The notes under the pieces are model-generated. The model ran no database searches. It saw nothing but the letters and a program-made list of their open reading frames with translations, and had not been told where the DNA came from. Below, piece after piece: positions 1 to 16,563 of a stretch of DNA of 16,563 nt (positions within the stretch are counted from its first letter, which is position 1; the number at the start of each line of letters is the position of its first letter). The translations under genes and the position numbers were made by a program. The stretch is taken from positions 1 to 16,563 of the forward strand of contig CAZJUB010000058.1 in NCBI GenBank assembly GCA_964549075.1. Direction: 5' to 3'. This DNA comes from an uncultured archaeon. Its GTDB lineage: Archaea; Asgardarchaeota; Heimdallarchaeia; Heimdallarchaeales; Heimdallarchaeaceae.

Positions 1-3
1 TGA

Positions 4-77
4 AGACCCGTAGTCTAGTGGAAGGATACGGGACTCTGGATCCTGAGACAGGCGTTCAAATCGCCTCGGGTCTACCA
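4..77 (+). tRNA. tRNA-Gln (anticodon CTG)
   Basis: Cloverleaf: acceptor AGACCCG/CGGGTCT, D-stem GTCT/GGAT, anticodon stem CGGGA/TCCTG around loop CT-CTG-GA, T-arm AGGCG-TTCAAAT-CGCCT, discriminator A, encoded CCA. A1-U72 is the archaeal tRNA-Gln hallmark. Confidence 0.97.
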
Positions 78-80
78 TTT

Positions 81-557: not shown

Positions 558-595
558 AAATAGAAGAAAGAAAATAAAACTAAAAAATATTCTGC

Positions 596-2011
596 TTACT
601 CAACGATTTCTTGTTCAGCCATATTTTTTAGTGCGATTAAAGCTTTTAGAGCAATTGTTGTTTCTTCGATATTTCCACCCCATAGTCCTTCTTTATCTTG
701 GACAGCTGCAAGATATAGAGCTGCTTTCTTTAATGATAAAGATTCTGCTGTTTCGCTTGGAATAAGAGAAAGAATAACATATCCTGTAGTACCGATATTT
801 CCACCCCATGAACCTTCTAAAAATTGGTGCCCAATAACTGCTTGGATGAATTGTTGTCTCCTTGGTGGAGCTCTTCGAATATCATGTAAAGCCAACATTA
901 AGCGAGCAAACATCTCTATAGGCGTTTTACCAGTTTGAGAAGTAGAAAATCTTGCATAGCCTCGTTTTATCACAATATCAATTGCTGCAATGAAAAGATT
1001 AGCCATTCTATCTAAAAGTTTGATATTTCCAGTAACATCGCCAACATAACTCATCATTATATGTAATGGAGTTGTTCTAGAGCGTAAATTGGGGGTGAAC
1101 CTGTTCAATTTGTTGATGAAATCCCATTCTGTTTCTTCAATAGTCGAATTGTAAAAGTCTTCTATTTCTTTGATATATGTATCAAAAATGACCGGATTGT
1201 ATAAACTTAAGGTATGAAGAATAAAATAATGCTCATAAGTTGTATCAACTGTTTCAGCTGTTTCTACTATAGCATTCAGACTTTCTAAAGATTTTCTGAG
1301 TTTGAAGGCTTTCTTACCTTCTTCTCTTTGAACTATCCATTCTGTATCTTCATTGTAACTAAGTTTGTAAAATAGCTCAACTACACAAGCTGTTTCATAA
1401 ACAGGACTAAGGTCACCCCAAAGACCATCTTCGTTTACTCTTTTCTTTAAAGCATTAATACCTTTATTGATAGTTTTATCAAGATTTAAATCAGATAATC
1501 GCTTACTTTTCAAATCCTTTTCTAAAAGTGAAAACTGATATTCTAAACCAAAAGAATCAGATCTATCTGCTCTAGGAATTGAAAATAGAAAATATGCTAT
1601 TTCTATTATATTGAGAAGGAAGAAAAGAACTATTAATGCGATTGTTTGAGGATGGATTTTTCCATCTACTGTTGTGTATAATCCTGGAATAGCTGCATAG
1701 AGTACTATAACAATTAATGATAAGATTCCCATAATTGCAAGAACTTTGTTTGAATTTTCACCGAAAATATCCATTCGATAATGATTCTCGATGTAACTCA
1801 AGATAAGAACTATCTCAAAAAACAAACCAATTGGAAAGAAAATGTACTTTCCAGTTGAACCTATTGGTGCAATTGAAATTGCAAATATGTATACCAGTGT
1901 GATGGCAAAAATAGTGATACTAAAAACAATAGTCTCTACTAGTCTTCTGAACCCAATTTGCTGACCAAACTTTAGAACCCTCGAATATATTTTGTAAGTC
2001 TCTTGAGTCAT
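596..2011 (-). CDS. Membrane-anchored prenyltransferase/squalene-oxidase-repeat (alpha/alpha toroid) protein
   Basis: Four hydrophobic N-terminal helices, then QW-like repeats VNEDGLWG, HQFLEGSWGG, QDKEGLWGG each followed by an amphipathic helix. ATG at 2011 preferred over TTG at 2014. Confidence 0.7.
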   Translation of the reverse strand: MTQETYKIYSRVLKFGQQIGFRRLVETIVFSITIFAITLVYIFAISIAPIGSTGKYIFFPIGLFFEIVLILSYIENHYRMDIFGENSNKVLAIMGILSLIVIVLYAAIPGLYTTVDGKIHPQTIALIVLFFLLNIIEIAYFLFSIPRADRSDSFGLEYQFSLLEKDLKSKRLSDLNLDKTINKGINALKKRVNEDGLWGDLSPVYETACVVELFYKLSYNEDTEWIVQREEGKKAFKLRKSLESLNAIVETAETVDTTYEHYFILHTLSLYNPVIFDTYIKEIEDFYNSTIEETEWDFINKLNRFTPNLRSRTTPLHIMMSYVGDVTGNIKLLDRMANLFIAAIDIVIKRGYARFSTSQTGKTPIEMFARLMLALHDIRRAPPRRQQFIQAVIGHQFLEGSWGGNIGTTGYVILSLIPSETAESLSLKKAALYLAAVQDKEGLWGGNIEETTIALKALIALKNMAEQEIVE

Positions 2012-2083
2012 CAAGATAAAATAAATGGTACATTATTCTTAAATCTTCTCTCAATAACAGTTAGAGATAAACTTAGGTGAAAT

Positions 2084-2425
2084 TTATGCTAAGACGATTG
2101 CTAAGATAATAATTATGATTGCAATAGCTGTAATTCCACCCATTATCCATGCCCATTCTTTGAAAATATTTCCAGCTTCTTCTGGTTTTTCTCTCTTCTT
2201 CATACGTAGAGCAGCTGCAACCCCTCCAACTGCAAGAGGATATAGGAGGAACACAATATTGACAGCATTAAATCTTGCACTCAGAAATACTGAAACTAGT
2301 GAAATTAAGAAAATTACTACACCAACGATGGAAATTAAATCTAGTATCTTATCTCCGAAATCTATTTTACCATATTCTTCCTTTACTGAAGAAATAGTCT
2401 TTCCGATATTTTCTCTGATACTCAT
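2084..2425 (-). CDS. Hypothetical 3-TM membrane protein
   Basis: 113-aa ORF with three hydrophobic segments, co-oriented with neighbours, GTGA SD-like element upstream of the ATG. Confidence 0.75.
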   Translation of the reverse strand: MSIRENIGKTISSVKEEYGKIDFGDKILDLISIVGVVIFLISLVSVFLSARFNAVNIVFLLYPLAVGGVAAALRMKKREKPEEAGNIFKEWAWIMGGITAIAIIIIILAIVLA

Positions 2426-2499
2426 GGGTATTCACTTTTTTGTATCTCTCGATTTAAAGACAGACAATCTATTTATAAAGAATTTTGTCATGTAGTAGG

Positions 2500-2871
2500 C
2501 TACTCGACATTCTCAATTTTTACTCCAGCTGATGTTTTCAGGTTTTCAAACGTTTTCAGGTTTTTTGTAACTGAACCTATAACTGCCATCTTTGAATCGA
2601 AGTTTTGATCAGCTAATAGTATAATAATTGCTTTAGCTTGTGAATCATAAGCAATTTCACCTTTTTTACCAAATTCTCGGGGTTTTTCGATGGCATAAAG
2701 AACTTCTGTAGGAATAACAAACATATCTCCTCGCTTTAAACCTCGAGAAGTAATAGGTAAACTTCTGTTGATTATCTCGGTGAGATGCGGACCTTTGATT
2801 CTGACTAATTCTCCTTCTACATCCTCCATTCCTGGAATGGTGAACTTGATTTTATAAACGTCTCCAATCAT
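2500..2871 (-). CDS. Cyclophilin-like fold protein (TM1367/DUF369-like)
   Basis: Pattern P.L...I...LPI.S, KGEIAYD...KAIIILL, VIGSV..NL..F resembles archaeal cyclophilin-like proteins. Confidence 0.6.
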   Translation of the reverse strand: MIGDVYKIKFTIPGMEDVEGELVRIKGPHLTEIINRSLPITSRGLKRGDMFVIPTEVLYAIEKPREFGKKGEIAYDSQAKAIIILLADQNFDSKMAVIGSVTKNLKTFENLKTSAGVKIENVE

Positions 2872-2997
2872 AATAAAATCCGTGATTCTTCACCCATATT
2901 TATATTGTTCTGTATGTTATCTTTTTGAAACAGAATCTATATTAGAGAAGAGGTGAAATGTATATTAGTTTCTACTAAATTTGTAGGAGAGTAGCTT

Positions 2998-3198
2998 ATG
3001 AGTCGCTATATCACACCCAAAGTAGACGTAAAAGAGCTTCTATTGGTTTCTGAAGAAGAATCAGATATAAAATGTGGAAAATGCAACAAACCGATGATGT
3101 TCACTATTTATTATAAAGATAAAGAATCATATGATTTTCTTGTATGTAAAGACTGCGAAATTTACATGCAAAGAGTAATTGTTGAAGACGATTTCTAG
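2998..3198 (+). CDS. Small zinc-ribbon protein
   Basis: 66 aa with CGKC and CKDC pairs; AGGAG SD and an AT-rich TATA-like element upstream. Confidence 0.75.
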   Translation: MSRYITPKVDVKELLLVSEEESDIKCGKCNKPMMFTIYYKDKESYDFLVCKDCEIYMQRVIVEDDF

Positions 3199-3265
3199 AA
3201 TAATATAGTATTTTTCATCTATCGAAAGTAAACTTAAAAAAGACTATAGGGATTTTAATAAAAAT

Positions 3266-3341
3266 AGCTCCATCGTCTAGTGGCCAAGGATACAGTGATG
3301 TTCTCACTGTGACGGATGTTCGAATCATCCTGGAGCTACCA
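3266..3341 (+). tRNA. Non-canonical tRNA: tRNA-Gln/Glu-like body, GTT at positions 34-36, C37
   Basis: AGCTCCA/TGGAGCT acceptor (A1-U72), GTCT/GGAT D-stem, CAGTG/CACTG anticodon stem around loop ATGTTCT, 4-nt variable loop TGAC, GGATG-TTCGAAT-CATCC T-arm, A73 plus CCA. TATA-like TTAAAAAA about 30 nt upstream. Confidence is for the tRNA fold; amino-acid identity is uncertain. Confidence 0.88.
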
Positions 3342-3342
3342 A

Positions 3343-3356
3343 TTTTCTTTTCTTTT
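3343..3356 (+). terminator. T-rich archaeal terminator after the tRNA
   Basis: TTTTCTTTTCTTTT directly after CCA. Confidence 0.55.
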
Positions 3357-3402
3357 ATGGTATAATTTCTCTCTTTCTTTCAAACACTACTCGTGCGATA
3401 TC

Positions 3403-3426
3403 TTTATTAATTCTTATTAGAATTAA
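3403..3426 (+). promoter_or_regulatory. TATA box overlapped by a perfect palindrome (putative operator)
   Basis: TTTATTAA at 3403-3410; TTAATTCT-N4-AGAATTAA at 3407-3426. Confidence 0.5.
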
Positions 3427-3440
3427 AAATTACACAAAAT

Positions 3441-3628
3441 GGAGGTGTCATAGACAAAATGAATGCAAGAAGAAATATCACTATAGAACCATTTGTTTGC
3501 ATCCTAAGACATACTATGACATCTCAGGAAAGGTTCTAACCTTCTCCCTTTTGCAACTTTTTTACCTAAGAAATCTCTACAGCAAATGATTCTCTTTTTG
3601 TCTTGACTCTCTATGTGGATGTGATATT
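3441..3628 (+). promoter_or_regulatory. Structured attenuator-like 5' leader of the RIO kinase gene
   Basis: 12-bp stem 3442-3453/3514-3525 (one G-U), inner stem ATGCAA/TTGCAT, hairpin 3527-3547 followed by U-tracts, competing helix TAGAACC 3484-3490/GGTTCTA 3532-3538. Confidence 0.55.
3459..3539 (+). CDS. Putative 26-aa leader peptide MNARRNITIEPFVCILRHTMTSQERF
   Basis: ATG..TAA frame preceded by GGAGGTG (3441-3447) with an 11-nt spacer; too short for the ORF track. Confidence 0.45.
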   Translation: MNARRNITIEPFVCILRHTMTSQERF

Positions 3629-3631
3629 AAA

Positions 3632-4420
3632 GTGCTAAACAAAGAATATTTAGAAAGAAGAGATGGAGCTGGTGTTGAGGAGATCTCTACATCAGAATCT
3701 ATAGCTGAGGCTATAGAAAACGGTTTAATAGCTGAAGCTCGTCAGATAATAGGACAAGGTAAAGAAGCATTTGTTTGTTGGGGTACAGACAATCAAAATC
3801 GCATGGTTGCTGTTAAAACATACAAACTTTTCAAAACCACACATAGAGATGTCATTCACGGTACTTACCGAACTAATCCCTATGTGATTGTTTCCCAATT
3901 TGCTAAACTTGAATATTATAAAAACCTCGACTTATTTCAAGCTAAACTTCCCGTTCCTGAACCTTACAAATATGCTGGTTTCAGTTATTCTATGCAACTG
4001 ATAGGTGATGAAGAAGGTCCTGCACCTTTATTAAGAGATGTAAGTAAGAGCTTTTTTGATGATCCTGCAGATATCCTAGAAGAGTGTATCGATATCTTAT
4101 ATGATATGTTCCAAGCTCATTTTGTTCATGGAGATTTTAGTGAACATAATCTGCTATGGTATGATGAAAAAATACATGTTATCGATTTTCTTCAGACCAA
4201 GCACTTTGCGTTGAAAGATGCTGTTCCTTATGGTTCATCGTTAATTCCACTATCTAGAGCATATAGGATTTTGAAAAAAGATCTCAACTCTCTTCTCCCT
4301 TTCTTCAAGAGGCTATTCAGAATTGAAGTCAACTATGATGAAGTTCTGGAGTATATTTTAGGAGATATAAAAAATAAAATTGATAGAGAACTCGAGCTTA
4401 GTTTAGAAACAAGTTCGTAA
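3632..4420 (+). CDS. RIO-family atypical protein kinase/ATPase (Rio1-like, no wHTH domain)
   Basis: IGQGKEAFV P-loop, AVKTY, VPEP, VHGDFSEHNLL catalytic loop, IDFLQ metal-binding loop; GTG start with GGATGTGA SD. Confidence 0.9.
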   Translation: MLNKEYLERRDGAGVEEISTSESIAEAIENGLIAEARQIIGQGKEAFVCWGTDNQNRMVAVKTYKLFKTTHRDVIHGTYRTNPYVIVSQFAKLEYYKNLDLFQAKLPVPEPYKYAGFSYSMQLIGDEEGPAPLLRDVSKSFFDDPADILEECIDILYDMFQAHFVHGDFSEHNLLWYDEKIHVIDFLQTKHFALKDAVPYGSSLIPLSRAYRILKKDLNSLLPFFKRLFRIEVNYDEVLEYILGDIKNKIDRELELSLETSS

Positions 4421-4432
4421 ATTCTCTCTTTT

Positions 4433-5116
4433 TTATTTTAATTCTTTTATTCCTTTAAGAGTGCTTAAACCATAACTATCATCTTGTTCTGTGAATATTG
4501 CTTCTATACGTTCTATTTCGTTTGTAGTTTTTTCTTTCGAAACAATCCTTGTTTTAATCTGAAACTTTAATTTCATCATATCTGCCCATGCAGCTAAACC
4601 CTTGTCTTTTGGTTCTTGTAATGCTATTTTTACCGTCTCTTCAAGTGTTTTAATCGAATCATCTGTGTTTCCTTTAAGAAATTCACCTAGTCCAACCATC
4701 CACATTGACCAAAGCATGGAGGTTTTTTCACCTATTGCTTTTCTTAATTCCAGATCTTTAACAGCTGCTTGATATCCAGGTTCAATGAATTTTTTATCTA
4801 CACCATCATCCATGTTAGGGAAACAAAAAGAAGCAACATTATGATTAAGTTTACCTGCAGTAAGCTTATCTCCTTTATCTAAAGCATATTTGATTGCTAG
4901 ATCAGAATAAGCGAAAATTTCATCCATTGTTGAAATTTGCTTTCCAATGGGAGGCCAGCCTCCTCCAAGTTCTTTAATTTGAATTTGAACGCTAACAATT
5001 GTTTTGAGTGTTTCAGTTTCATCATCAAAAAGATTGCTGATAAAAGGAATGATTTCTTCTGATTTATTATTTTTATAACATTCAAGGAATTTTTTTGCAA
5101 TTTCTTTAGGTTCCAT
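4433..5116 (-). CDS. Hypothetical alpha-helical (TPR-like) protein
   Basis: Long ORF with helical-repeat character (LNHNVASF, WSMWMVGLGEFLKGNTDDSIKTLEE). ATG at 5116 follows the TTGATAAAA motif. Confidence 0.65.
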   Translation of the reverse strand: MEPKEIAKKFLECYKNNKSEEIIPFISNLFDDETETLKTIVSVQIQIKELGGGWPPIGKQISTMDEIFAYSDLAIKYALDKGDKLTAGKLNHNVASFCFPNMDDGVDKKFIEPGYQAAVKDLELRKAIGEKTSMLWSMWMVGLGEFLKGNTDDSIKTLEETVKIALQEPKDKGLAAWADMMKLKFQIKTRIVSKEKTTNEIERIEAIFTEQDDSYGLSTLKGIKELK

Positions 5117-5173
5117 TTTTATCAATAAAAGAATCGAAATTCAGTTTATAATAGTTTAAGTAAGGACAAATTT

Positions 5174-5992
5174 CTAACCTAAAGCGAAATAATAGATTAA
5201 GAACAAGATGTTGCCTAGAAAAAGATTTAGAATATATCCAAACAACAGAAACACAACACCAGGAGGTAAAACTTTCACCCATATTTGCTTTCTTCCTGTT
5301 TCTTTTATGTTCTCCTCTACTTCTTTCTTAAATTCCTCCTCTTCTTCAACTTCAGTTACTTGGATAAAATGTTTGATATTCCATTCTTTTCTCTTATTAT
5401 CATAAACTTCAGAATAAACTATATCATGTCTGTTTACTGCTTTTTCAGTTTGAATCAAGTAGCCTGATATCATCATCAAAATTTTGCTAGCAAAGTTGGC
5501 ATTAGTATTTTCAAAGAGTTTCTTTCCCTTTGTTTTGAGAAAAATATTATAGAAAAGTAAAGGTAGAGGATAGAATATCACCATCACAAGTAACCAGTTA
5601 AAGAAAGTATTGAAAATTGGAGGAATGAAGGTATATACACCTTGTGTTAAGAAATTCCAATTGAAAATGTAGATGGGAGTATTAAAAGATAAAGCCATGA
5701 TCGCTTTTGCATCTGCCCCTCCCATAATCCCTGTATAGTAAAGTAATAATCCTAAAACAATGCCAACTCCAATATTTACTCCATACATTATTCCAACTTG
5801 TCTTGGATTTTCAGAATAAATTATTAGGAAAATAGATGTAATAGCACCAGTCGAAGCTATAACAATCCACGGTATATCAGAAATCTCTCTTTTTAATAAA
5901 TCAAAAACTGAACCAAAAATTAGACAAATTACTACCGCTGCAACTTGAATATAAAACATAACATGGAATACTATTGGTGAAGGTACGACCAT
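5174..5992 (-). CDS. A24-family prepilin/prearchaellin peptidase (FlaK/PibD-like)
   Basis: Multi-TM protein with catalytic aspartates in SVFDLLKREISD and MGGADAK (GxGD-type), C-terminal IWV...P...FL segment. Confidence 0.88.
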   Translation of the reverse strand: MVVPSPIVFHVMFYIQVAAVVICLIFGSVFDLLKREISDIPWIVIASTGAITSIFLIIYSENPRQVGIMYGVNIGVGIVLGLLLYYTGIMGGADAKAIMALSFNTPIYIFNWNFLTQGVYTFIPPIFNTFFNWLLVMVIFYPLPLLFYNIFLKTKGKKLFENTNANFASKILMMISGYLIQTEKAVNRHDIVYSEVYDNKRKEWNIKHFIQVTEVEEEEEFKKEVEENIKETGRKQIWVKVLPPGVVFLLFGYILNLFLGNILFLIYYFALG

Positions 5993-6110
5993 TTTAATAC
6001 ACTAATTTGGTGATTAAAGCATTATAAAAATGATTTGTGTGTGTCATTAAAAAAACTGAAATAAACTTAAAACTAATTAATCCGAGTATCGTTTTATAAG
6101 ATGATAATAG

Positions 6111-6899
6111 ATGACTGAACTAAACTTTGAACCTTTACCCACTGATTCATTACTTGAGCTTACAAAACGACTGAATTCTGCAGTTGGAGACAAAATGATT
6201 ATCTTAGCTGGGAGATGTACAGCTGAATTCGATGGTAGAATAAAGTCATCCTTAGATATAGGTGATAGGTTGCTTATAATTAAAAAAGATCTTTCTATTA
6301 TAATGCATGGCCCTATAGGTGTCAAACCTTTAAATTGGCAAAAGCCAAACGCTGGACCCATTAATTTCAATTCAAATCATGATTCTCTGGAGATGATAAC
6401 TCGAAGAACTAAAACCAAAGAACTACTTACAATTGTATTCACAAACCTTTCTTCTGTTTCTCTATGGCATGCAACTGATGTATCAGAAATGATTATTTAT
6501 GGAGATGAGAGTGATTTAGTAAAATATCTTGTTTCTTCACCTGATTTGATAGAAGAAGGATTTCAAGTTTTAAGAACAGAATATAATACAGATGTTGGTC
6601 CAGTTGATATAAGAGGTATTGGTAAATCAGGAGAAATAATTGTTGAAGTAAAAAAGAGAAATGCAACTCCAGCTGATGCATATCAATTAAAACGATATAT
6701 AGAGTATTTTGAGGAAAAGGAGAAAAAAGATGTTATAGGAATGCTGGTAGCACCTGATTTCCCAGAAAAAGTGCTTCAGTATCTAAATGAAAACGATTTA
6801 GTAGCAAAGAAAATTCATTGGAAAGATGTTTTTCCAACTTTACAACGCCCAAAAAGTGCACTACTAGAAGAATTTTTTGAAGAAAAAAAAGAAAAATAG
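6111..6899 (+). CDS. nucS: Endonuclease NucS/EndoMS
   Basis: FDGRIKS.L..GDRLLIIKKD.S..MH..G.KPLNWQ N-terminal domain; G.E.DL, GPVDI, IVEVK, QLKRY nuclease motifs; PIP-box-like C-terminal ..LLEEFF. Confidence 0.95.
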   Translation: MTELNFEPLPTDSLLELTKRLNSAVGDKMIILAGRCTAEFDGRIKSSLDIGDRLLIIKKDLSIIMHGPIGVKPLNWQKPNAGPINFNSNHDSLEMITRRTKTKELLTIVFTNLSSVSLWHATDVSEMIIYGDESDLVKYLVSSPDLIEEGFQVLRTEYNTDVGPVDIRGIGKSGEIIVEVKKRNATPADAYQLKRYIEYFEEKEKKDVIGMLVAPDFPEKVLQYLNENDLVAKKIHWKDVFPTLQRPKSALLEEFFEEKKEK

Positions 6900-6907
6900 T
6901 AATTAAA

Positions 6908-7225
6908 TTATTGAATCTGACCGCATGGCTCTTCTGGGATAATAATCCACATAATGATATAAGCCCAGAAAGTAGCTGAACCAGTAAATAAGAAACTTAT
7001 TACAGTTAATGCTCTAACCAAATTCAAATCTAAATTAGTGTATTTTGCTATACCAGAACATACACCTGCAACCATCCGGTTATCTGTACAACGCACAAAT
7101 TTCTGAGTTTGTTCATTAATTACCAACTGTTGAGGTTGAGCTTTAGCTTCACCTATATTTCTACCACATTTTCCACAAAACATGGCATCATCTGGATTTT
7201 CTGTTCCGCACTGTGGACATTTCAT
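6908..7225 (-). CDS. Zinc-ribbon + PspC domain membrane protein
   Basis: CPQCG..N..DAMFCGKCG ribbon followed by the PspC signature R..DNRMVAGVCSGIAKY..LD..LVR...AYIIMWIIIPEE. Confidence 0.88.
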   Translation of the reverse strand: MKCPQCGTENPDDAMFCGKCGRNIGEAKAQPQQLVINEQTQKFVRCTDNRMVAGVCSGIAKYTNLDLNLVRALTVISFLFTGSATFWAYIIMWIIIPEEPCGQIQ

Positions 7226-7343
7226 TTTTATCAAGAAATAGTTTTACTTCCACTATTTAAAATATATGCATTCAAAGGCTAAGACTAGTCTGTTATAGTT
7301 CTGCAAGAATAATTTATATATAACTATTCTATCTCAAAACATT

Positions 7344-8363
7344 ATGACTAAAGATCCTTATATTATAATAAATCCTAGTGCTAATACTGGACGACTTGGA
7401 AAAAATTTAGATAAAGTTTTGAAACTAGTAGAACAATATATTGGAAAATTTGAATATTCTTTAACAGAAAGTCCAAGACATGAAAAAGAGCTAGCTCAGA
7501 AGGCAATAGATGAAGGTTATAAATTCTTAGTAGCGCTTGGAGGGGATGGAACTGCTACCAATATGGGAGATGTAATTATTAACCATCCTGATGTAAAACT
7601 TGGTTTGATTTCAGCTGGATCTATGTGTGATTGGCATCAATCTTATTATATCCCCTTTCATATGGAAGAAAGTCTTAAAATTCTAAAGGAAGGTCATGTA
7701 GAAAAAATCCCCGCGATGAGATGTAAAGGTGATGAAGAGACCTACTCTTTTGATATGACAGACGGTGGTTTTACAGGAAAAGCTGCTGCTGCAGCTCATT
7801 ATGAAATGAAGTGGATGAAGATAGGTTCAATTAAATATGATCTTCTCGCTGTAAAATATGTTATTAAAACAAAAAATACTCCTTGTATGATAAAGATAGA
7901 TGATAATGAACCTTTCAAAATAGATGCATTAACAAATTTCTTTGTGGCGTTAAGTGATGATATTTCAGGATTTCATGTGCTTCCTGGAAACACAGTATTT
8001 TGTAAAAAGAATAAGGATTTAGGTATTGCAATAGTTCATGGGAAAAAGGGATTGAGCAGAATAAGTATGTTGGTTAAAGCTATTCCTGGTAATCATATTG
8101 GAATAAAAGGTGTATGGTTTTCAAGAGGAAAGAAAATTGAAATAGAATCTTTGAGAGATCCTCTGTGTTGTGAAGCAGAAGGAGAAATCTATAATGAACA
8201 CGGAATGAAAATTGAGATAGAGCGAGTAGATGATGCTATTAGCTTAATCGTTCCAAAAGAACGAGAGTATAAAATCGAGTATGATGAATCGTATTTCCAC
8301 GAAAAATTTGAAGATTCTTTTAAGAAACGTAAATTTGAGAGAGTTCCAGAGTTTACTAAATAA
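7344..8363 (+). CDS. Diacylglycerol-kinase-family lipid kinase (YegS/DgkB-like)
   Basis: IINPSAN, LT..PRH..ELA, ALGGDGT, C-terminal EGE motif. Confidence 0.85.
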   Translation: MTKDPYIIINPSANTGRLGKNLDKVLKLVEQYIGKFEYSLTESPRHEKELAQKAIDEGYKFLVALGGDGTATNMGDVIINHPDVKLGLISAGSMCDWHQSYYIPFHMEESLKILKEGHVEKIPAMRCKGDEETYSFDMTDGGFTGKAAAAAHYEMKWMKIGSIKYDLLAVKYVIKTKNTPCMIKIDDNEPFKIDALTNFFVALSDDISGFHVLPGNTVFCKKNKDLGIAIVHGKKGLSRISMLVKAIPGNHIGIKGVWFSRGKKIEIESLRDPLCCEAEGEIYNEHGMKIEIERVDDAISLIVPKEREYKIEYDESYFHEKFEDSFKKRKFERVPEFTK

Positions 8364-8454
8364 ATACCTTTATTGCTTCTTCGTTGAAAAAAGATTTAAA
8401 AGAGCAGTCACGTTATATTGACTAACCTCTATTGAATAAACGGAGAAAGACGAC

Positions 8455-8739
8455 ATGTCAGATGATAAAAAAAACGCGATCTACATTGGAAAAAAAGGAA
8501 CTATGAATTACTGTTTAGTCGTTGTTACAATCTTCAATAAAGGAGAAGAGGAATGTACAATAAGAGCAAGGGGTAGAGCGATTTCTAAAGCGGTTGATGT
8601 CGCTGAAATCACTGTAAGACGATTCTTACCTGAAATAATAGTAATCTCTGATGTAATCATTGGTTCTGAAGTACTAGAAATTGATGGTCAAGAAAAAACA
8701 GTTTCAACAATCGATATAATACTTAAACGTAAATCTTAG
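8455..8739 (+). CDS. albA: DNA/RNA-binding protein Alba
   Basis: IYIGKK..MNY, IRARGRAISKAVDVAEI..RRF, VSTIDI.L. Confidence 0.96.
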   Translation: MSDDKKNAIYIGKKGTMNYCLVVVTIFNKGEEECTIRARGRAISKAVDVAEITVRRFLPEIIVISDVIIGSEVLEIDGQEKTVSTIDIILKRKS

Positions 8740-8830
8740 AATAATAGCAACTTAGTATGAATTGAGTTGAGGTTTTCTTAGTTTACTCTTTTTATATTTG
8801 AAAGTAAAAAAATCGAAAATTGTGACACTT

Positions 8831-9004
8831 CTACTCTTTTAATTTCATTGGAGCACCACAGCAAGAGAACTCACAGTGCTCGTCACATCCACAGGATTCA
8901 GCAGAAGTACCACATTCCTCACATTCTACGACAACTTTTAATTCTAAACCACAATCCTCGCACATATAAATTTGACCTAGTTTCATGTTATGACAATTAA
9001 CCAT
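8831..9004 (-). CDS. Small Cys-rich desulforedoxin-like metal-binding protein (57 aa)
   Basis: MVNCHNMKLGQIYMCEDCGLELKVVVECEECGTSAESCGCDEHCEFSCCGAPMKLKE. Start at 9004 follows TTGATAAAA (alternative ATG at 8986). The longer track ORF to 9259 overlaps the SDR antisense. Confidence 0.8.
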   Translation of the reverse strand: MVNCHNMKLGQIYMCEDCGLELKVVVECEECGTSAESCGCDEHCEFSCCGAPMKLKE

Positions 9005-9089
9005 TTTTATCAAGCTAAGGTAAATTTTCTGGAATAAAAGACTTGTGGATTGTAAAAAAATTATTAATCTTATCTGTTCTCGTTTTCGT

Positions 9090-9899
9090 ATGAAAAATAT
9101 ACCTTTAGGTTCCAAAGTTGCCGTAATTACTGGTGCTTCAAGTGGAATTGGTGAGATGTTCGCTCGAGAATTAGCAGCAAAAGGATATAATTTGATTCTT
9201 GTTGCTAGAAGAAAACCAAAACTTGAGGAATTAGCAAATGAAATGAATTTAAAGTTCAAAGTAAGTACAGAGGTGATTTTAGCAGATTTATCAGAAATGA
9301 CAAAAATAGAGGAACTTGTAACTTACTTTACTGAAAAGGAAGGGATAGAAGTTTTAGTAAATAATGCTGGATATGGTTTATTAGGTAATTTTGTGGATAT
9401 AGAGTTGTCAAAACAACTTAAGATGATTAAAGTTCATAGTATAGCTAGCTATTGCTTTTCTAAAGCTGTTTTACCTGTAATGCTTAAGAATAATAAAGGT
9501 TTCATAATAAATGTCTCTTCTCTGAGTGGTTTGATGCCTAAATATGGGAATGTAGCCTATACTGTTTCAAAATCATTTCTTATAGTATTCTCTCAAACCT
9601 TACAAGAAGAGTTGAGAAATACCAATATCAAAATTCAAGCTCTCTGTCCGGGGATGACTGTATCTGAATTTCATAATAAAGAGAAATTACCTGACTTTGA
9701 CAAATCTTCTGTTCCTAAAAATTTCTGGATGACTTCAGAAGAAGTTGTAAGAAAATCCTTGAAATCTTTAAGGAAGAGAAAAACAATTTATGTTCCTGGG
9801 TGGAAAAATCGTTTGTCTTTAAGAATCTCAAATAATTTCCTTATTGGAGCAATTATTAGATATTTTATTTCATTAAGATTTAGGAGAAACAAAGAATAA
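9090..9899 (+). CDS. Short-chain dehydrogenase/reductase (likely NADP-dependent)
   Basis: TGASSGIG, VARR, LVNNAG, NVSS, YTVSK (YxxxK), LCPG. ATG at 9090 preferred over GTG at 9045. Confidence 0.93.
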   Translation: MKNIPLGSKVAVITGASSGIGEMFARELAAKGYNLILVARRKPKLEELANEMNLKFKVSTEVILADLSEMTKIEELVTYFTEKEGIEVLVNNAGYGLLGNFVDIELSKQLKMIKVHSIASYCFSKAVLPVMLKNNKGFIINVSSLSGLMPKYGNVAYTVSKSFLIVFSQTLQEELRNTNIKIQALCPGMTVSEFHNKEKLPDFDKSSVPKNFWMTSEEVVRKSLKSLRKRKTIYVPGWKNRLSLRISNNFLIGAIIRYFISLRFRRNKE

Positions 9900-9917
9900 A
9901 GTGAATATTCTTTTACT

Positions 9918-10574
9918 TCAAATAACTTGAACCCATCTTGGTTCATACTCATTTCGTGCAAATTTGATTCTCACTAGCTGTTGAATTGATTCTGGTTCAT
10001 CTTTTCTTTGAGTTTCTACAACCATATCTACTATTGTGTGAAGAGTATTTTCTGTCTTCTCATCGATAACGCCTGAATCTAACAATAAAAGAGCAGTTTG
10101 TTTTCTCTGACGAATTCTAGCTGCAAGAGTCTGAAGAAAATTTAATACCTGCATAGGTCTGTTATATAACATCAGTATAGCTAATTGATCAAATACGATT
10201 CGCAACTTAGGAGCTTTTTTAGAAAGTTCGTCTATTGTAACTGAAAGAGTAATAAGGTCACTTGCATGTTCTAAGAAGAAAGTATTTTTTGGTTTAACTT
10301 CAGGTATGGATCTATAGGATAAAGAATCAATGAAGTGTATTTTTCCTGTATCAATATGTGTTTGTAAACCAGTAATGGAATTTTTTAACTGGTCTACATA
10401 ATCCTCAGCAGATTGAGCAAATAGCACAATTAAAACAGTTTCTCCTTTTTTGATTCCATCTTCGATAAATCTAGTGGCTAGAACTTCTTTAGATGTACCT
10501 GATTCTCCAGCCATTAAGATTAATGAACTATCAACACTTTTTACTAAAATATCTATCCTTGTTTGTACAGACAT
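9918..10574 (-). CDS. KaiC/RAD55-like RecA-fold protein with degenerate Walker motifs
   Basis: ILMAGESGTSKE (Walker A variant), F..DGIKKGETVL, IHFIDS, RIVFDQL (Walker B region), IVDMVVE, RIKFAR. GAGGT SD. Confidence 0.8.
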   Translation of the reverse strand: MSVQTRIDILVKSVDSSLILMAGESGTSKEVLATRFIEDGIKKGETVLIVLFAQSAEDYVDQLKNSITGLQTHIDTGKIHFIDSLSYRSIPEVKPKNTFFLEHASDLITLSVTIDELSKKAPKLRIVFDQLAILMLYNRPMQVLNFLQTLAARIRQRKQTALLLLDSGVIDEKTENTLHTIVDMVVETQRKDEPESIQQLVRIKFARNEYEPRWVQVI

Positions 10575-10588
10575 TCTTTAACCTCTTA

Positions 10589-11395
10589 TTACGAAAGTTG
10601 TTTGACAACTTCTTTGCAGAACTTCAATCCATTTTCTGTAAATTTTTCAATATTAACAGATTTTGCTGCTAGTCTAAGATAATGAGCAGTCTGGAAAGGT
10701 GTGATATCAAGTTTATCTTTATATTTGTCTTCAAGAAGGATTATAGCAGAACTTCTGTAAAACTCAGTTTCACCTTGATAATAAAGATAAGCACAACCAC
10801 AACCGAGTACAGCATCAACTGTTAGATAACGTTTATCATAATCATCTACATCTTTTAAAGTCGGAATAGCTTCCATATCTTCTAAAAACATTTTTGCCAT
10901 ATCTCGAGCAGATTCTTTTATATCTTTTTCTTCGATTTTTATTCCTTCAAAAGGATTTTTTCCTATTAGCGCTTTACCTTGTTGTGCTACCAGTACTCTG
11001 GTCCAAGGATAATCAGTAGGTTTTCCAGCTTTAGGTATTTCTTCTTTTGTTAAAACTTCAACATCAAGTAACGAACTATACAACGGGTCTTCAAGATATG
11101 TAAGTACAACATCACTTATTCTTTCCATTGATTTTTCTAAATTCTCGTCTTCTGCTGCTTTATCTTTGAGAATTATAAGGAAATCGCAATCAGATTCACC
11201 AGCTATATGTTCCTTAGTTACAACGCTACCGACCAGTAAAAGGCTATCTACAATATCCTTTAATTTAGTTTTAACATCTTTAACAAATTCTTCAGTTAGA
11301 TTCTGGTACTCGTCTCTCATAATTGTTGGCCCTCTTGGAGGACCAGGAGGACCTGTTGGTGGACCAGTAGGGGGACCGGAAGATTGATCACTCAT
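10589..11395 (-). CDS. Pol-beta-superfamily nucleotidyltransferase with helical C-terminal domain and Pro-rich N-terminus
   Basis: LLLVGSVV...GESDCDFLII (hGS..DxD) plus a third Asp in LLDVEV; helical C-terminal half (HEPN/KNTase-C-like). ATG at 11395 (alternative GTG at 11404). Confidence 0.8.
   Translation of the reverse strand: MSDQSSGPPTGPPTGPPGPPRGPTIMRDEYQNLTEEFVKDVKTKLKDIVDSLLLVGSVVTKEHIAGESDCDFLIILKDKAAEDENLEKSMERISDVVLTYLEDPLYSSLLDVEVLTKEEIPKAGKPTDYPWTRVLVAQQGKALIGKNPFEGIKIEEKDIKESARDMAKMFLEDMEAIPTLKDVDDYDKRYLTVDAVLGCGCAYLYYQGETEFYRSSAIILLEDKYKDKLDITPFQTAHYLRLAAKSVNIEKFTENGLKFCKEVVKQLS
11327..11377 (-). repeat. Coding GPP(T) repeat: GPPTGPPTGPPGPPRGP
   Basis: Read from the translation. 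Codons are synonymously diverged, so the repeat is at protein level. Confidence 0.85.
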
Positions 11396-11566
11396 AGTAT
11401 TCACGTTTCCTAATGTTCAGTATTTTTATATCTTAATAATCCATTTGGTATGGTTTTCTTAAACTTTCCTAAAAATATCAAGGCTATTGTCAGAGTAATA
11501 TTACAAATAAAATTTAATAGTAGGAGAATTATCAGTTAGTATAAACTGAATCTTCGGCTGAATCAG

Positions 11567-14521
11567 ATGAGGAAGAAAACTAAAACGAGTGATTTTGCTA
11601 AACAAAAAGAATTGTGTCCTCATAATATGCATTACGAAATCATTGCAGAAGAACTCGATACAGATATAAAATTCGGTTTGAAACAAGAAGTAGTTGACCA
11701 ACGTTTAGAAAAATATGGTCGAAATATCATCCCCAAAGTAAAAGGATCTGTTTGGGAAGTTTATATTGCTCCTTTGCTTAATTGGCTCATAAATATTTAT
11801 CTTATAGTTGCTGTAATTATGGTCATTTTAGGATTAATTCAAGATATAGTTTTTCGAGGTCAATCACAAAGCAGTGTGTGGGGACAAATTGGATTTTGGA
11901 TGGCTATTATTGGTGTGAACATCATTTTCACTATATTTCAACAGGTAAGAGCTCAGTTCAAATTAGATGCCTTACATAAGCTCTCTGCACCTTCTTCTAC
12001 AGCTATAAGGAATGGTATTCCTGAAAATATTAGTGCAGAGTTACTCGTTCCCGGAGATTTAATCGAATTAGATCAAGGAGACAGGGTTCCAGCTGATTCT
12101 AGAATTATTTATTCAAGTAATTGTTTGGTAAATGAGAGCGCTTTAACAGGGGAATCGGTGTCTGTAGAAAAAACTAGTACTCCTCAAGAGTGTCTCGATG
12201 AAGATACTCCAATCTCTCAAAGAGTAAATATGCTCTACACAGGGACTTTTCTAGAAGCAGGAAGAGCTATCGCTATAGTTGTTAATACAAGTATTTACAC
12301 CGAACTAGGTAAACTCTCTTCTGAACTACAGCAAATAGGTTCAAATGAAATCCCAATAAGATCAAAAGTAAACAGATTAGCAAAATTCCTTGGTTTAGCA
12401 GTTGTAGCTTTTATTGTAATTTCTGTAATTTACAAAATAGCTTTCCATTCAGTCACACAAACCATTTTAAAAGTAGATTTCGTTAATGATTTGATTTTAA
12501 CAGTAACAACTTCCATGGCAATAATGCCAATCAGTATACCTTTGCTAACAACATTAATCCTACTAACAGGAGTGTTGGCAATGGCAAAAGATAGAGTGAT
12601 AATAAGAAACCTTTCTGCAGTAGAGACATTAGGAAGAAGCTCGATTTTGTGTAGTGATAAGACAGGAACGATAACATCAAATCAAATGACTATCCAACGT
12701 ATTTGGGATGTAGAAAATTTTTACGGTGTATCTGGAGTAGGATATAGTAACAAAGGAGCAATCTATCCATTAGGAGAGGAATTCCCAGAAAAATTCGAGG
12801 AATATACTTTACCTGATTCTTTGAAACCATTTGCAGAAGGGTCATCTTTAGAATACTTACTTATAGGTGGGATGTTGAATAATAACGCTCATCTTATAGT
12901 CGAAGAGGTGTTTGAGCCAAACTATCAGATATCTTGGAAAACTACAGGTGATCCAACAGATGGTGCTTTTCTGGCTTTGTTTAATAAATCAGGATTGATA
13001 GAAAAAGAAGTGAGGACAAAGTACGGTTATCTCTCAGAATTTAATTTTGATTCATTAGTAAAACGAATGAGTAAGACCTATCAGAATGAAGCAGGGTATA
13101 TTTTATTCTGTAAAGGAGCAACAGAAACAGTACTCCCACTATGTGATAAGATAGGTTATCCTGAAAAATACCGAACATTAGAAGAGGAAGATAGAAAGAA
13201 AATAATGGAGTATGTAACAATTTTTGCTGCAGAAGGATATAGAGTGATATCACTAGCAGCTAAACCGATGGACAAAGAAACAACATTGACACATGATCGT
13301 GAGCAAGAAGAAAATGAGTTGATTTATAACGGATTTGTCTGTATGCTGGATCCAGCAAGATATGGGGTGAGAGATGCAGTAGAAGAATGTCTTAGAGCTG
13401 GAATAACACCAATTATGATTACAGGAGATTCACCTGTAACAGCAAAAGCTATAGCCAGAGAAGTAGGAATAATAAAAGAGAAAGAGCTAACAATAGAAGG
13501 AAATCAAATAAGTGATTTGACAGAAGAAGAATTCTTCAAAACAAGAATTTTTGCAAGAGTATCACCTCAACATAAACAAGTGATAGCAAGAAAATATCAA
13601 GATAAGGGAAAGGTTGTGTCGATGTGTGGTGATGGAGTGAATGATGCATTAGCTCTGACAATTGCAGATGTGGGTATCTGTATGGGTATTTCTGGTACAG
13701 AAGTTGCTAAACAAGCCTCTGATGTTGTTATTGCTGATGATAGTTTTACAAGCACAGTTTTAGGTATTCGAGAAGGTCGTGGTTTGTTTGACCGTATACG
13801 TGTTATGATTTTCTTCTATATAACACTCAATATTGCTGAAGCTATCATTTATTTTGCTTCTTCTTTTATCCCTGGCTTTCACCTTGTTAACGATTTTCAA
13901 CGAGTGTATATTTTCTCTACAGCTCATCTTATCCCTCCATTTGCATTTATCTTCGATAGTATCGCTTCTGAGATAATGGACTACCCACCTAGAGATGATG
14001 AGGAGATTTTTAATCGAAGGTATGTTCTAGCTCTTGTAATTCTTGCTCTCTCTCTAGCTTTTTCAGCTGGTGTGATTTATCTAATAGGGTATTTTGGTAT
14101 CCTTCCTGTGAATGATTTTAATCTCTTGGGTAACATAATAACAGGAGACACTGGTCCCCTCCCTCGAACTTTTGAACAAGCTAAGGCAAGAACAATGTTT
14201 GTAACTGTACTGGTTATTGCAGAGAGTCTTATTGTTCTCAGTCTAAGAAGGTTAAACAAATCAGTTTTCAAATCGTTTAAAGAAGATTGGAAGTGGCTTG
14301 TAATTATACTAGTCGCAGTCGTACCTATACTTCACCTCTTGCTAATGTATATACCCGCTCTGCAAAATCTTGTTGTAACGATTATGGGTGAAGGGTACAA
14401 TCCTGGTTTGATGCCTTTGAGTATTCTGGATTGGGTGGTGGTTCTAATAGCAATAGCTATACCAATAGTAACAATGGAATTATACAAGTATTTCATCAGA
14501 AAAAGAAAGATGTATTATTAA
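11567..14521 (+). CDS. P-type ATPase, P2A (SERCA/PMR1)-like scaffold with non-canonical substrate site
   Basis: LVPGD, VPAD, ESALTGES, CSDKTGT (D364), GDPTD, KGATE, DPAR, MITGD, FARVSP.HK, GDGVND; about 10 TMs; TM4 reads PISIP instead of PEGLP. Confidence 0.93.
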   Translation: MRKKTKTSDFAKQKELCPHNMHYEIIAEELDTDIKFGLKQEVVDQRLEKYGRNIIPKVKGSVWEVYIAPLLNWLINIYLIVAVIMVILGLIQDIVFRGQSQSSVWGQIGFWMAIIGVNIIFTIFQQVRAQFKLDALHKLSAPSSTAIRNGIPENISAELLVPGDLIELDQGDRVPADSRIIYSSNCLVNESALTGESVSVEKTSTPQECLDEDTPISQRVNMLYTGTFLEAGRAIAIVVNTSIYTELGKLSSELQQIGSNEIPIRSKVNRLAKFLGLAVVAFIVISVIYKIAFHSVTQTILKVDFVNDLILTVTTSMAIMPISIPLLTTLILLTGVLAMAKDRVIIRNLSAVETLGRSSILCSDKTGTITSNQMTIQRIWDVENFYGVSGVGYSNKGAIYPLGEEFPEKFEEYTLPDSLKPFAEGSSLEYLLIGGMLNNNAHLIVEEVFEPNYQISWKTTGDPTDGAFLALFNKSGLIEKEVRTKYGYLSEFNFDSLVKRMSKTYQNEAGYILFCKGATETVLPLCDKIGYPEKYRTLEEEDRKKIMEYVTIFAAEGYRVISLAAKPMDKETTLTHDREQEENELIYNGFVCMLDPARYGVRDAVEECLRAGITPIMITGDSPVTAKAIAREVGIIKEKELTIEGNQISDLTEEEFFKTRIFARVSPQHKQVIARKYQDKGKVVSMCGDGVNDALALTIADVGICMGISGTEVAKQASDVVIADDSFTSTVLGIREGRGLFDRIRVMIFFYITLNIAEAIIYFASSFIPGFHLVNDFQRVYIFSTAHLIPPFAFIFDSIASEIMDYPPRDDEEIFNRRYVLALVILALSLAFSAGVIYLIGYFGILPVNDFNLLGNIITGDTGPLPRTFEQAKARTMFVTVLVIAESLIVLSLRRLNKSVFKSFKEDWKWLVIILVAVVPILHLLLMYIPALQNLVVTIMGEGYNPGLMPLSILDWVVVLIAIAIPIVTMELYKYFIRKRKMYY

Positions 14522-14596
14522 AGAAATTTGAAGTTCATGTGTGAAGCTTTATAATAATTATTGAAAACTCAAACATGGATTTGAGCTGGTGTAGTA

Positions 14597-16563
14597 ATGG
14601 ATTCCCAAAAGCAACAACGCATCACTGAACATCCTATATTGTTAGAAGATGATTTTGAATTCGTATCGTTTTCATTTGATGGAAAACCGTTATTAGGTAA
14701 GAAAGGAGAGATGTTATCTTCTGCCTTAATAGCTAATGGTATACAAATATTCGGACATCACCCTAAAGATGGTGCACCTCAAGGTATTTTTTGTGCTAAT
14801 GGTCAATGTTCTCAATGCACAGTAATTGTTGATGGTATTGCAGTTAAATCTTGTATGACCCCCTTAGTTGAAGGAATGAAGGTTGAAAGCTTAGAAGGTT
14901 ATTCTAGTCTTCCTGAAGATGATGAAAAGTTTGAATTCCACAGTATAAAAACAGTTGAGACTGATGTATTAATTATAGGTGGAGGACCCGCTGGATTACA
15001 AGCTGCCATCACCTTGGGGGAATATGATGCTAATATTATACTAATAGATGATAAGAGTAGATTAGGAGGAAAATTACTTCTTCAGACGCACAAATTCTTT
15101 GGATCTGTTGCAGATTCATTCGCGGGAACCAGAGGTTTAGATATAGCTAAAATTCTCGAGAAAGAAGTGCGTTACATACCGAATATCGATGTTTGGTTGA
15201 GTAGTCCATGTATAGGGATTTTTTCTGATAAACTAGTAGGTGTTTTAAAAGGTGATCAATATTTCTTAATTAAACCTAAGAAGTTGTTAGTTGCTACTGG
15301 AGCTAGAGAAAAAATGCTAGCCTTTCCAGGAAATACACTCCCTGGAGTATATGGTGCTGGAGCTTTTCAGACTCTTGTTAATAGAGATTTGGTTAAATCC
15401 AGCGAGAAAATTTTTATCATAGGTGGGGGAAATGTTGGTATTATTGCAGGTTATCATGCTATTCAAGCTGGAATTGAGGTGGTGGGATTAGTTGAAGCTC
15501 TCCCTAGCTGTGGAGGGTATAAAGTACATGAAGATAAATTGAGAAGGCTTGGAGTACCTATCTTTACACGACATACAGTAATTGCTGTTCATGGTGAAGA
15601 TCATGTTAAAGCTGTTACTATCTCTGAAATAGATGAACAGTTTAAATCTATTGCTGGAACTGAAAGAACTTTTGAAGTTGACACAGTCTTGATTGCTATT
15701 GGTTTGGATCCTATCAACGAATTCTATCAGAAAGCAAAGGAGTTTTGTATGGATGTCTGGGCTGCGGGAGATGCTTATGAAATCGCTGAAGCTTCCTCTG
15801 CTATGTTCAGTGGAAAAATTGCTGGAATGAAAATTGCTAAGTCTTTGGGATTGACTGACGACGAAGTTCCCAAAGAATGGGAATTAAAAGCTGAAATTTT
15901 AAAGAGTCATCCTGGTATTGTAATTAAAAAAGAAAAACCGATTAAAGAGGAAGGGGTATATCCTGTTTTCCATTGTAATCAAGAAATTCCTTGTAATCCT
16001 TGCACATCTGTTTGTCCTAAAGGACTCATCGTTATACCTGAAGGTGGTCTTTTAGGGCTTCCTGAATTTCAATATCAGAAAGATGTAGAATGTATTGGCT
16101 GTGCTCAATGTGTAGCTGTTTGCCCTGGGTTAGCTGTAACTTTGGTTGATTTTCGTTCGGATTCAAACCATCCATTAGTTACTATTCCGACTGAGATTTT
16201 TTGTGGGAAAATAGCGGAAGGTGATGAATTAATTGTTATTGGAGAAGAATATCAGGAAATTGGAAAATTTGCTGTAGAAAAAGTACGAATTCTTAAAAAA
16301 TATCCAAACACACGGCTAGTTTCAGTTAGATTACCAAAAGAAGCAGCGTTGGACGCTATCTCCTTCAAACATCCTCAAGATCACGTGATTAAAGAGTTAC
16401 AGAAATACCATGATATTATCCCTGATGAAGCTATTATTTGCAGATGTGAACGAATAACAGCTGGAGAACTTCGAACACTTATTAGACAAGGAGTAAAAGA
16501 TGCTAACGAACTTAAGGCTATAACTAAGGTAGGTATGGGCGCTTGTGGAGCAAAAACCTGTAC
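14597..16563 (+). CDS. Multi-Fe-S FAD-dependent oxidoreductase (sarcosine oxidase alpha / L-proline dehydrogenase alpha-like fusion), 3' truncated by the window edge
   Basis: My translation: RITEHPIL; FCANGQCSQC..C (2Fe-2S); IIGGGPAG and IGGGNVG Rossmann motifs; ATGARE; CNQEIPCNPCTSVCP and CIGCAQCVAVCPG (2x4Fe-4S); IICRCE..GMGACGAKTC (BFD-like). The frame stays open to the end, which is why the track omits it. Confidence 0.92.
   Translation, partial: MDSQKQQRITEHPILLEDDFEFVSFSFDGKPLLGKKGEMLSSALIANGIQIFGHHPKDGAPQGIFCANGQCSQCTVIVDGIAVKSCMTPLVEGMKVESLEGYSSLPEDDEKFEFHSIKTVETDVLIIGGGPAGLQAAITLGEYDANIILIDDKSRLGGKLLLQTHKFFGSVADSFAGTRGLDIAKILEKEVRYIPNIDVWLSSPCIGIFSDKLVGVLKGDQYFLIKPKKLLVATGAREKMLAFPGNTLPGVYGAGAFQTLVNRDLVKSSEKIFIIGGGNVGIIAGYHAIQAGIEVVGLVEALPSCGGYKVHEDKLRRLGVPIFTRHTVIAVHGEDHVKAVTISEIDEQFKSIAGTERTFEVDTVLIAIGLDPINEFYQKAKEFCMDVWAAGDAYEIAEASSAMFSGKIAGMKIAKSLGLTDDEVPKEWELKAEILKSHPGIVIKKEKPIKEEGVYPVFHCNQEIPCNPCTSVCPKGLIVIPEGGLLGLPEFQYQKDVECIGCAQCVAVCPGLAVTLVDFRSDSNHPLVTIPTEIFCGKIAEGDELIVIGEEYQEIGKFAVEKVRILKKYPNTRLVSVRLPKEAALDAISFKHPQDHVIKELQKYHDIIPDEAIICRCERITAGELRTLIRQGVKDANELKAITKVGMGACGAKTC

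Follow-up and report, generated by a model that had tools for sequence, protein, structure and literature searches.

P-type ATPases are grouped into subclasses according to the transport site, and until now every subclass has corresponded to a single type of substrate. In the P2A Ca2+-ATPases (LMCA1, human SPCA1/yeast PMR1 type, SERCA), the fourth transmembrane helix (TM4) reads PEGLP and TM6 carries N..TD. In SERCA, Asp800 bridges both Ca2+ sites. The P4 lipid flippases (Drs2, ATP8A1) have DGET in the A-domain, PISL in TM4 and Lys/Asn in TM5. Here we analysed a P-type ATPase gene on a 16,563-nucleotide stretch of DNA from an uncultured archaeon of the Heimdallarchaeaceae (Asgardarchaeota; assembly GCA_964549075.1, contig CAZJUB010000058.1, positions 1 to 16,563 of the forward strand), which is called the window below. 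An initial annotation had compared its TM4 motif, PISIP, with that of the P4 flippases and proposed a lipid or an organic/anionic head group as substrate. Our analysis points to a different reading: the gene product is likely a P2A-fold P-type ATPase from a large, Asgard-centred clade, with a rebuilt transport site that moves one small non-Ca2+ inorganic cation per cycle.

The pump gene is an uninterrupted open reading frame (ORF) with an ATG start and zero internal stops. Pfam recognised Cation_ATPase_N, E1-E2_ATPase, Cation_ATPase, Hydrolase and Cation_ATPase_C, the full P2-type architecture, and the Pfam scan found no further domain (e.g. metal-binding) at either terminus. All the catalytic motifs described as intact in the initial annotation (TGES, DKTGT, TGD, GDGVND) were located in the translation (Table 1). 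The product exceeded the cut-off of the P-type superfamily model TIGR01494 (HAD-IC; 243.4 against 62.3 bits), with the superfamily motifs all present. It is predicted to be an intact P-type pump sharing with the P2A Ca2+-ATPases the domain order, the ten-helix fold and the catalytic motifs including TGES.

The transport site differs from that of the P2A pumps. PEGLP of TM4 is replaced by PISIP (PINIP in most of the family, as described below) and N..TD of TM6 by F..AH. In a phmmer search against PDB chains, Listeria LMCA1 ranked first (1.6e-106), and in its HMMER alignment PISI stood against PEAL while F783, A786 and H787 of TM6 stood against Asn, Asn and Asp. A HMMER profile of 139 family members placed the TM6 Phe and His opposite Asn and Asp of human SPCA1, and a MAFFT alignment with 54 PEGL pumps reproduced the HMMER columns, with E758 meeting the Glu of the PEGL pumps. 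The profile alignment further set the TM8 Glu opposite Asp in SPCA1 and Arg in LMCA1, a column which we take to be the E908 position. The C-terminal 245 residues alone gave zero matches in PDB (phmmer, E <= 0.001), and therefore the TM8 equivalence rests on the full-length profile alignments. In SERCA numbering (E309, N768, E771, N796, T799, D800, E908), HMMER (LMCA1, SPCA1) and MAFFT agreed on E309 to I, N796 to F, T799 to A and D800 to H, and on the retention of N768, E771 and E908, just as an earlier manual alignment had read them; the recomputed positions of TM4 PISIP and of the TM6 start were also as first given. The P2A site-II ligands (TM4 Glu, TM6 N796 and D800) are absent from the pump, which has Ile322, Phe783 and His787 instead. 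The site-I ligands N768, E771 and E908 are kept as N755, E758 and E886, but T799 has become Ala and D800 has become His. Judged by these HMMER and MAFFT columns, Ca2+ site II, which had been described as dismantled, is erased by the TM4 Glu to Ile, TM6 Asn to Phe and TM6 Asp to His changes. One pocket is left in the place of Ca2+ site I. Its lining consists of E758, H787 and N755, in most members also the TM8 E886, and on the TM4 side a small polar side chain, Asn across the family and Ser in the source lineage.

The substitutions are not private to this pump. In an alignment of the 139 full-length family members, P321 and E758 were kept in all 139, H787 in 138, N755 in 134 and I322 in 132. 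The TM8 Glu E886 was found in 110 members (Ile in 26) and F783 in 100; TGES was also present in nearly all listed relatives. With such conservation, the changes at the site are beyond chance. A maximum-likelihood tree (LG+G4) was built from 132 rows, comprising 68 family members, 54 PEGL pumps, 8 Asgard P3A pumps and, as outgroup, the 2 P1B pumps of the source genome. A second tree used a site-mixture model with 47 rows, 21 of them from the family. Eukaryotic P2B, P2C, P2D, P4 and P5 sequences lay outside both trees, and these classes were compared by model scores and PDB rankings. The family was monophyletic in both, with a support of 100 in the SH-like approximate likelihood ratio test (SH-aLRT) and a long stem of its own (0.33 changes per column with 132 rows, 0.51 in the mixture tree). 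The clade of family plus PEGL pumps excluded the P3A pumps (SH-aLRT 99 and 83, respectively). The family was nested inside the PEGL pumps under LG+G4 with supports of 85-96, and the mixture model gave a polytomy with the PEGL pumps as one side at 66. The phylogeny, a check suggested in the initial annotation, groups the family with the P2A pumps and sets P3A apart. The source pump falls inside the PINIP/TM6-His clade and shows its TM4 P-hydrophobic-(N/S)-x-P, TM5 N..E and TM6 His.

The residue that gave rise to the comparison with flippases has a much narrower distribution than the TM6 His. P-I-S equals the first three letters of the P4 motif PISL, position for position, and the acidic site-II ligands are lost. 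However, at position 323 the 28 closest relatives have Ser (23), Thr (2), Ala (2) or Met (1), and the other 111 members have Asn in 109 and Ser in 2, which makes PINIP the family consensus. A survey of 50 genome loci, 4 of them unreadable at this position, gave the same picture: Ser (17) or Thr (3) at all 20 readable loci of the source's own taxonomic family (f1), against Asn at each of the 26 loci that could be read from nine other families. In the tree, the source pump belongs to a 9-row clade (SH-aLRT 100) with PISIP, PITIP, PIMIP or PIAIP, and losing the TM4 Asn took at least three changes among the 68 family rows. Also in this subclade, Leu largely takes over from Ser/Thr at the position after the His, and residue 784 turns to Ser, as if the small polar side chains had been rearranged locally about a constant Glu/His/Asn/Glu core. 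Conservation in homologues, which the initial annotation had proposed to check, was therefore observed for the TM6 His but not for PIS, which is confined to the source lineage. An Arg had also been reported in TM6; R779 is indeed present, in 28/28 close relatives but in only 50/111 others, and it lies at the start of the modelled TM6 helix (residues 776-786), eight residues ahead of H787. PISIP is a local form of the family PINIP and no sign of a flippase. What the P4 pumps have in common with the source pump is limited to the Ile at the E309 position and, in the source lineage, the Ser after it; the source pump has TGES and not DGET, keeps the second TM4 Pro, and has NIAE in TM5 in place of Lys/Asn.

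Scores against subclass models placed the pump near the P2 types and below the subclass cut-offs that follow. It obtained 417.3 bits with TIGR01522 (PMR1 type; cut-off 798.3), 397.0 with TIGR01116 (SERCA type; 703.4), 394 with TIGR01523 (ENA type; 645; aligned span residues 23-845), 375 with the NCBIfam PMCA-type model (507), 277.6 with TIGR01647 (P3A; 615.5) and 231 with the NCBIfam P5 model (618). The P4 flippase model TIGR01652 gave 78.7 bits against a cut-off of 431.25 and was among the weakest P-type models matched, while the P2 models gave about 400. Fourteen PEGL relatives reached 590-823 bits on TIGR01116 and TIGR01522, and the source pump reached 1448 bits on the family profile. Among 50%-identity cluster representatives, P-hydrophobic-Asn/Ser in TM4 gave way to PEGL as the score dropped from 489 to 458 bits, with three lower-scoring representatives (P0168, P0175 and P0190) retaining the family motif. 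A general P-type pattern search of the genome contigs returned almost exclusively canonical PEGL pumps, and the family motif, where TM4 was read, appeared only at one locus (L015). An AlphaFold2 model from the 139-row alignment had a mean predicted local distance difference test score (pLDDT) of 85.1 and a predicted template modelling score (pTM) of 0.79. In the model, TM4 is interrupted at residues 320-322 and TM6 at 787-791, which is the unwinding expected of ion-site helices. The best 50 Foldseek matches in PDB were all P2 pumps (SPCA1, SERCA1/2, Na,K-ATPase, H,K-ATPase and LMCA1), with TM-scores of 0.60-0.76 to SPCA1 and SERCA and the best scores against E2P-like states. No flippase occurred among these 50 or among the 60 PDB matches listed for the family profile (E <= 1e-60). 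The P2A Ca2+-ATPases were the best matches by both sequence and fold, and in the structural comparison that had been proposed the fold ranking favoured P2 pumps over flippases. The statement that the pump is not a true P4 agrees with its TGES, its TM5 NIAE and the low TIGR01652 score.

The family is widespread in Asgard archaea. At E <= 1e-100, the family profile matched 240/251 sampled Asgard genomes, a threshold that also admits canonical pumps. At E <= 1e-280 it matched 172/251, a lower bound with 3 candidates scored per genome; these correspond to 71/89 high-quality genomes and 46/63 genera. The 150 strict-threshold matches listed scored 1204-1484 bits, and the canonical PEGL pumps of three Chloroflexota genomes scored at most 796 bits on the same profile. 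The best 120 matches in a collection of 5.8 billion proteins came, wherever the source was named, from Heimdall-, Hod-, Odin-, Thor- and Lokiarchaeota, plus two Dehalogenimonas species. Deep-branching family members with a name were Promethearchaeota, i.e. Asgard. The two bacterial copies, from Dehalogenimonas etheniformans and D. formicexedens (P0095, P0103), belong to the family and carry both PINIP and the TM6 His. None of the 401 sampled Chloroflexota genomes gave a family-level match (E <= 1e-260), and therefore the Dehalogenimonas copies are probably sporadic transfers from Asgard archaea. Tandem family copies were seen in some Asgard genomes (G025:C86:1220-4132 and 4592-7492; G178:C13:22237-25128 and 25367-28303).

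The P3A H+-ATPases, which are present in Asgard genomes, offer a comparison for a P-type site of this kind. Like the source pump, they carry a hydrophobic side chain in place of E309 and keep the P-x-x-x-P frame. In our MAFFT alignment, TM4 of the Asgard P3A pumps reads PVALP or PAALP, with no Glu and both prolines; the P3A TM5 Arg aligns to E758 and the P3A TM6 Asp to H787. Both groups thus have one acid-base pair at the same TM5 and TM6 columns, which may allow a one-site, counter-ion-free mechanism, but with the charges exchanged: P3A has Arg in TM5 and Asp in TM6, the source pump Glu in TM5 and His in TM6. The two are also separated in both trees, and the source pump falls below the P3A model cut-off and lacks the TM6 Asp and TM5 Arg. 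The P2D ENA pumps give a second comparison. According to the relevant passages of PMC10779151, TM4 of NcENA1, a fungal Na+ pump, contains I341-P342-A343-S344, its TM5 an essential Glu and its TM6 an Asp (D860). These TM4 residues may occupy the same columns as those of the source pump; by the residue numbers in those passages, ENA lacks the TM4 Glu and has its Ser one place later (PMC10779151). ENA keeps the TM6 Asp, unlike the source pump with its His, and was compared by residue numbers and by TIGR01523, outside the tree and the alignment.

On this basis, we suggest that the pump follows the usual E1/E2 cycle and would export one small inorganic cation, not Ca2+, per cycle. E758 would carry the ion or proton. 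H787 would act as an internal counter-charge for the empty site, neutralising it and making a counter-ion unnecessary. The Glu-His pair would then be the P3A Asp-Arg device with the charges swapped between TM5 and TM6. Among substrates, H+ or Na+ is favoured as the prediction. Taken by substrate, H+ is a tentative candidate and Na+ or K+ a possible one; Mn, Fe, Zn or Mg is rather unlikely, Ca2+ improbable, and a lipid or other bulky compound scarcely credible. The 26/139 members without the TM8 Glu, where a single carboxylate is left, would fit a monovalent better than a divalent ion. That the pump does not carry Ca2+, as first proposed, was a sensible inference, the changes being conserved; it probably moves a small ion other than Ca2+. 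A new P-type subclass with a previously undescribed Glu-His site and a substrate unseen in P2-like pumps appears far likelier than transport of a lipid.

Several points weigh against this reading. Glu/His/Glu/Asn is also a classic ligand set for Mn, Fe and Zn, and sites for alkali cations seldom include His. Some genomes (e.g. G041, G083, G109, G113) have P3A pumps alongside the family, and a proton-pumping family member would be partly redundant there. The neighbourhood offers no pointer to any substrate. The contact between E758 and H787 is presumed from homology to SERCA site I. True P3A pumps above the cut-off were found in 26/151 Asgard genomes, and none (E <= 1e-100) in the source genome. 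Many Asgard genomes also encode P-type ATPases in open frames of about 840-990 aa whose P3A-model scores, 380-560 bits, stay under the cut-off; these form a further unclassified group (e.g. G006:C2:319115-321241, G001:C1:1292529-1294835).

The best of the alternatives, rather unlikely in our view, is that the protein pumps a divalent transition metal or Mg2+ (Mn2+, Fe2+, Zn2+, Co2+, Ni2+). The conserved Glu/His/Glu/Asn set is typical of ligands for these metals. Glu758, His787, Glu886 and Asn755 would bind the metal, and the His would double as a ligand and the internal counter-ion, as described for P1B-4 pumps. Sequencing runs with near-identical DNA were labelled salt-marsh metagenome, five of them possibly the source sample, and such sediments can be rich in reduced metals. 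A review describes a histidine as the internal counter-ion of a P1B-4 ATPase (PMC10654040). However, the TM8 Glu is missing in 26/139 members, the site has zero Cys, no metal-binding domain is attached, two CPC-type P1B pumps already exist in the source genome, and no metal regulator or chaperone recurs beside the gene in 21 loci.

It seems improbable that the protein is still a Ca2+ pump carrying one Ca2+ at the retained site I. Database sources name relatives 'Ca2+-transporting ATPase', and the closest models and structures are those of Ca2+ pumps. The equivalents of N768, E771 and E908 are retained. According to a transportome paper, each of the five Asgard proteomes contains a putative Ca2+ ATPase (TC 3.A.3.2.21), an orthologue group that may or may not be this family (PMC7997004). 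Against this, the Asp800 equivalent is His in 138/139 members and the T799 equivalent is Ala in the source pump. The single-site Ca2+ pumps LMCA1 and SPCA1 retain site II, not site I, in our alignments. The Ca2+-pump equivalog cut-offs were all missed, and widely (417 against 798 and 397 against 703 bits). In the source genome (3.23 Mb, 89.7% complete), P-type ATPases occupy four loci: the two CPC-type P1B pumps, the PISIP pump, and a canonical P2A fragment of 493 aa at a contig end (C194:2-1480, +) with NFDE in TM5 and NLLTDALP in TM6. Since a canonical Ca2+-type pump is present in the same genome, the PISIP pump would be a paralogue with another job.

Transport of a lipid, bulky or organic substrate along a TM4 groove by the clade or the PISIP branch, with Ile322 as a hydrophobic gate and the pump as a P2-to-P4 intermediate, a prokaryotic forerunner or a convergent archaeal analogue of the eukaryotic P4/P5 pumps, is very unlikely even though the source archaeon comes from the archaeal lineage closest to eukaryotes, and neither it nor the organic or anionic head group first proposed is supported, because the likeness to PISI rests on one lineage-specific residue, the TM4 Glu is lost also in P3A and, by the numbering in the passages noted above, ENA pumps (PMC10779151), a buried Glu-His pair that is invariant speaks for an ion site, and none of 151 Asgard genomes searched had a P4-type match over the TIGR01652 cut-off (best 84 bits). 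CDC50/LEM3 (PF03381) gave 0 matches in the 89.7%-complete source genome, and the control search gave 0/14 genomes as well, so this result is without a positive control.

We failed to find a published description of the PINIP/TM6-His family in the literature searched, but most subscription journals lay outside its coverage and an earlier description is possible. Neither PINIP nor PISIP was found in use there as a P-type ATPase motif name, and the matching passages listed from a 2023 review of P-type ATPases contain no such family. The clade is large and old, occurs in most sampled Asgard archaea and has a site that fits no described subclass, yet databases label it a Ca2+ pump; Ca2+ signalling in Asgard genomes should not be read from annotation alone. 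Should it prove to be a primary pump for H+ or Na+, the clade would bear on how membranes are energised and desalted in the closest archaeal relatives of eukaryotes, and it would provide a natural charge-swapped test case for the idea of a built-in counter-ion in P-type pumps.

Table 1. Features of the pump and its surroundings in the window (nucleotide positions are those of the window; residues are those of the pump).
Feature	Nucleotides	Residues	Strand	Basis and remarks
Whole gene, 984-aa P2-like P-type ATPase	11567..14521 (including stop codon)		+	ORF list, translation
A-domain TGES, dephosphorylation motif	12146..12157	194-197	+	Translation; G195 and E196 invariant in 139 members
TM4 PISIP, at the PEGLP position of Ca2+ pumps	12527..12541	321-325	+	I322 replaces site-II Glu; S323 replaces family Asn
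DKTGT phosphorylation motif	12656..12670	364-368	+	Translation; invariant in 139 members
KGATE		516-520	+	Motif positions recomputed
P-domain TGD (within MITGD)	13421..13429	619-621	+	T619, G620 and D621 invariant in 139 members
P-domain GDGVND	13628..13645	688-693	+	G688, D689, G690, N692 and D693 invariant in 139 members
TM5 LNIAE	13826..13840	754-758	+	N755 at N768 position; E758 at E771 position, proposed ion/proton carrier
TM6 QRVYIFSTAHLIPP	13898..13939	778-791	+	F783 at N796, A786 at T799 and H787 (13925-13927) at D800 position
TM8 IAES	14216..14227	884-887	+	E886 at E908 position, from profile alignment
DAGK_cat/YegS-like lipid-kinase-type gene	7344..8363		+	3 kb upstream of pump
ORF with short Cys-rich C-terminal stretch	8831..9259		-	Several CxxC-like pairs, by eye; perhaps a small metal-binding protein
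Nucleotidyltransferase-domain protein (PF01909)	10589..11404		-	Divergent from pump; Pro/Gly-rich N-terminal repeat by eye
A+T-rich 162-base spacer, common to divergent upstream gene and pump	11405..11566		.	TATA-like stretches, by eye
Large FAD/2Fe-2S/4Fe-4S oxidoreductase	14597..16561		+	Directly downstream of pump; continues past window end

The genome context was compared at 21 loci (20 Asgard genomes plus the source; 334 ORFs, 24 of them pump ORFs), and no recurring neighbour gene family was found among them beyond close kin. The most widely shared neighbour occurred at 5 loci of a single taxonomic family. Pump neighbours included an NTP_transf_2 protein, a KaiC-like ATPase and the FAD/2Fe-2S oxidoreductase, with no substrate link, and in these 21 loci neither the YegS-like gene nor the oxidoreductase recurred beside the pump in other taxonomic families. 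No RNA run was present among the listed run records with near-identical sequence. Read by eye, the spacer ahead of the pump contains TATAAA about 21-26 bases upstream of the ATG, which may be a promoter element. The ORF with the Cys-rich stretch overlaps a short-chain dehydrogenase gene (9045..9899) on the opposite strand.

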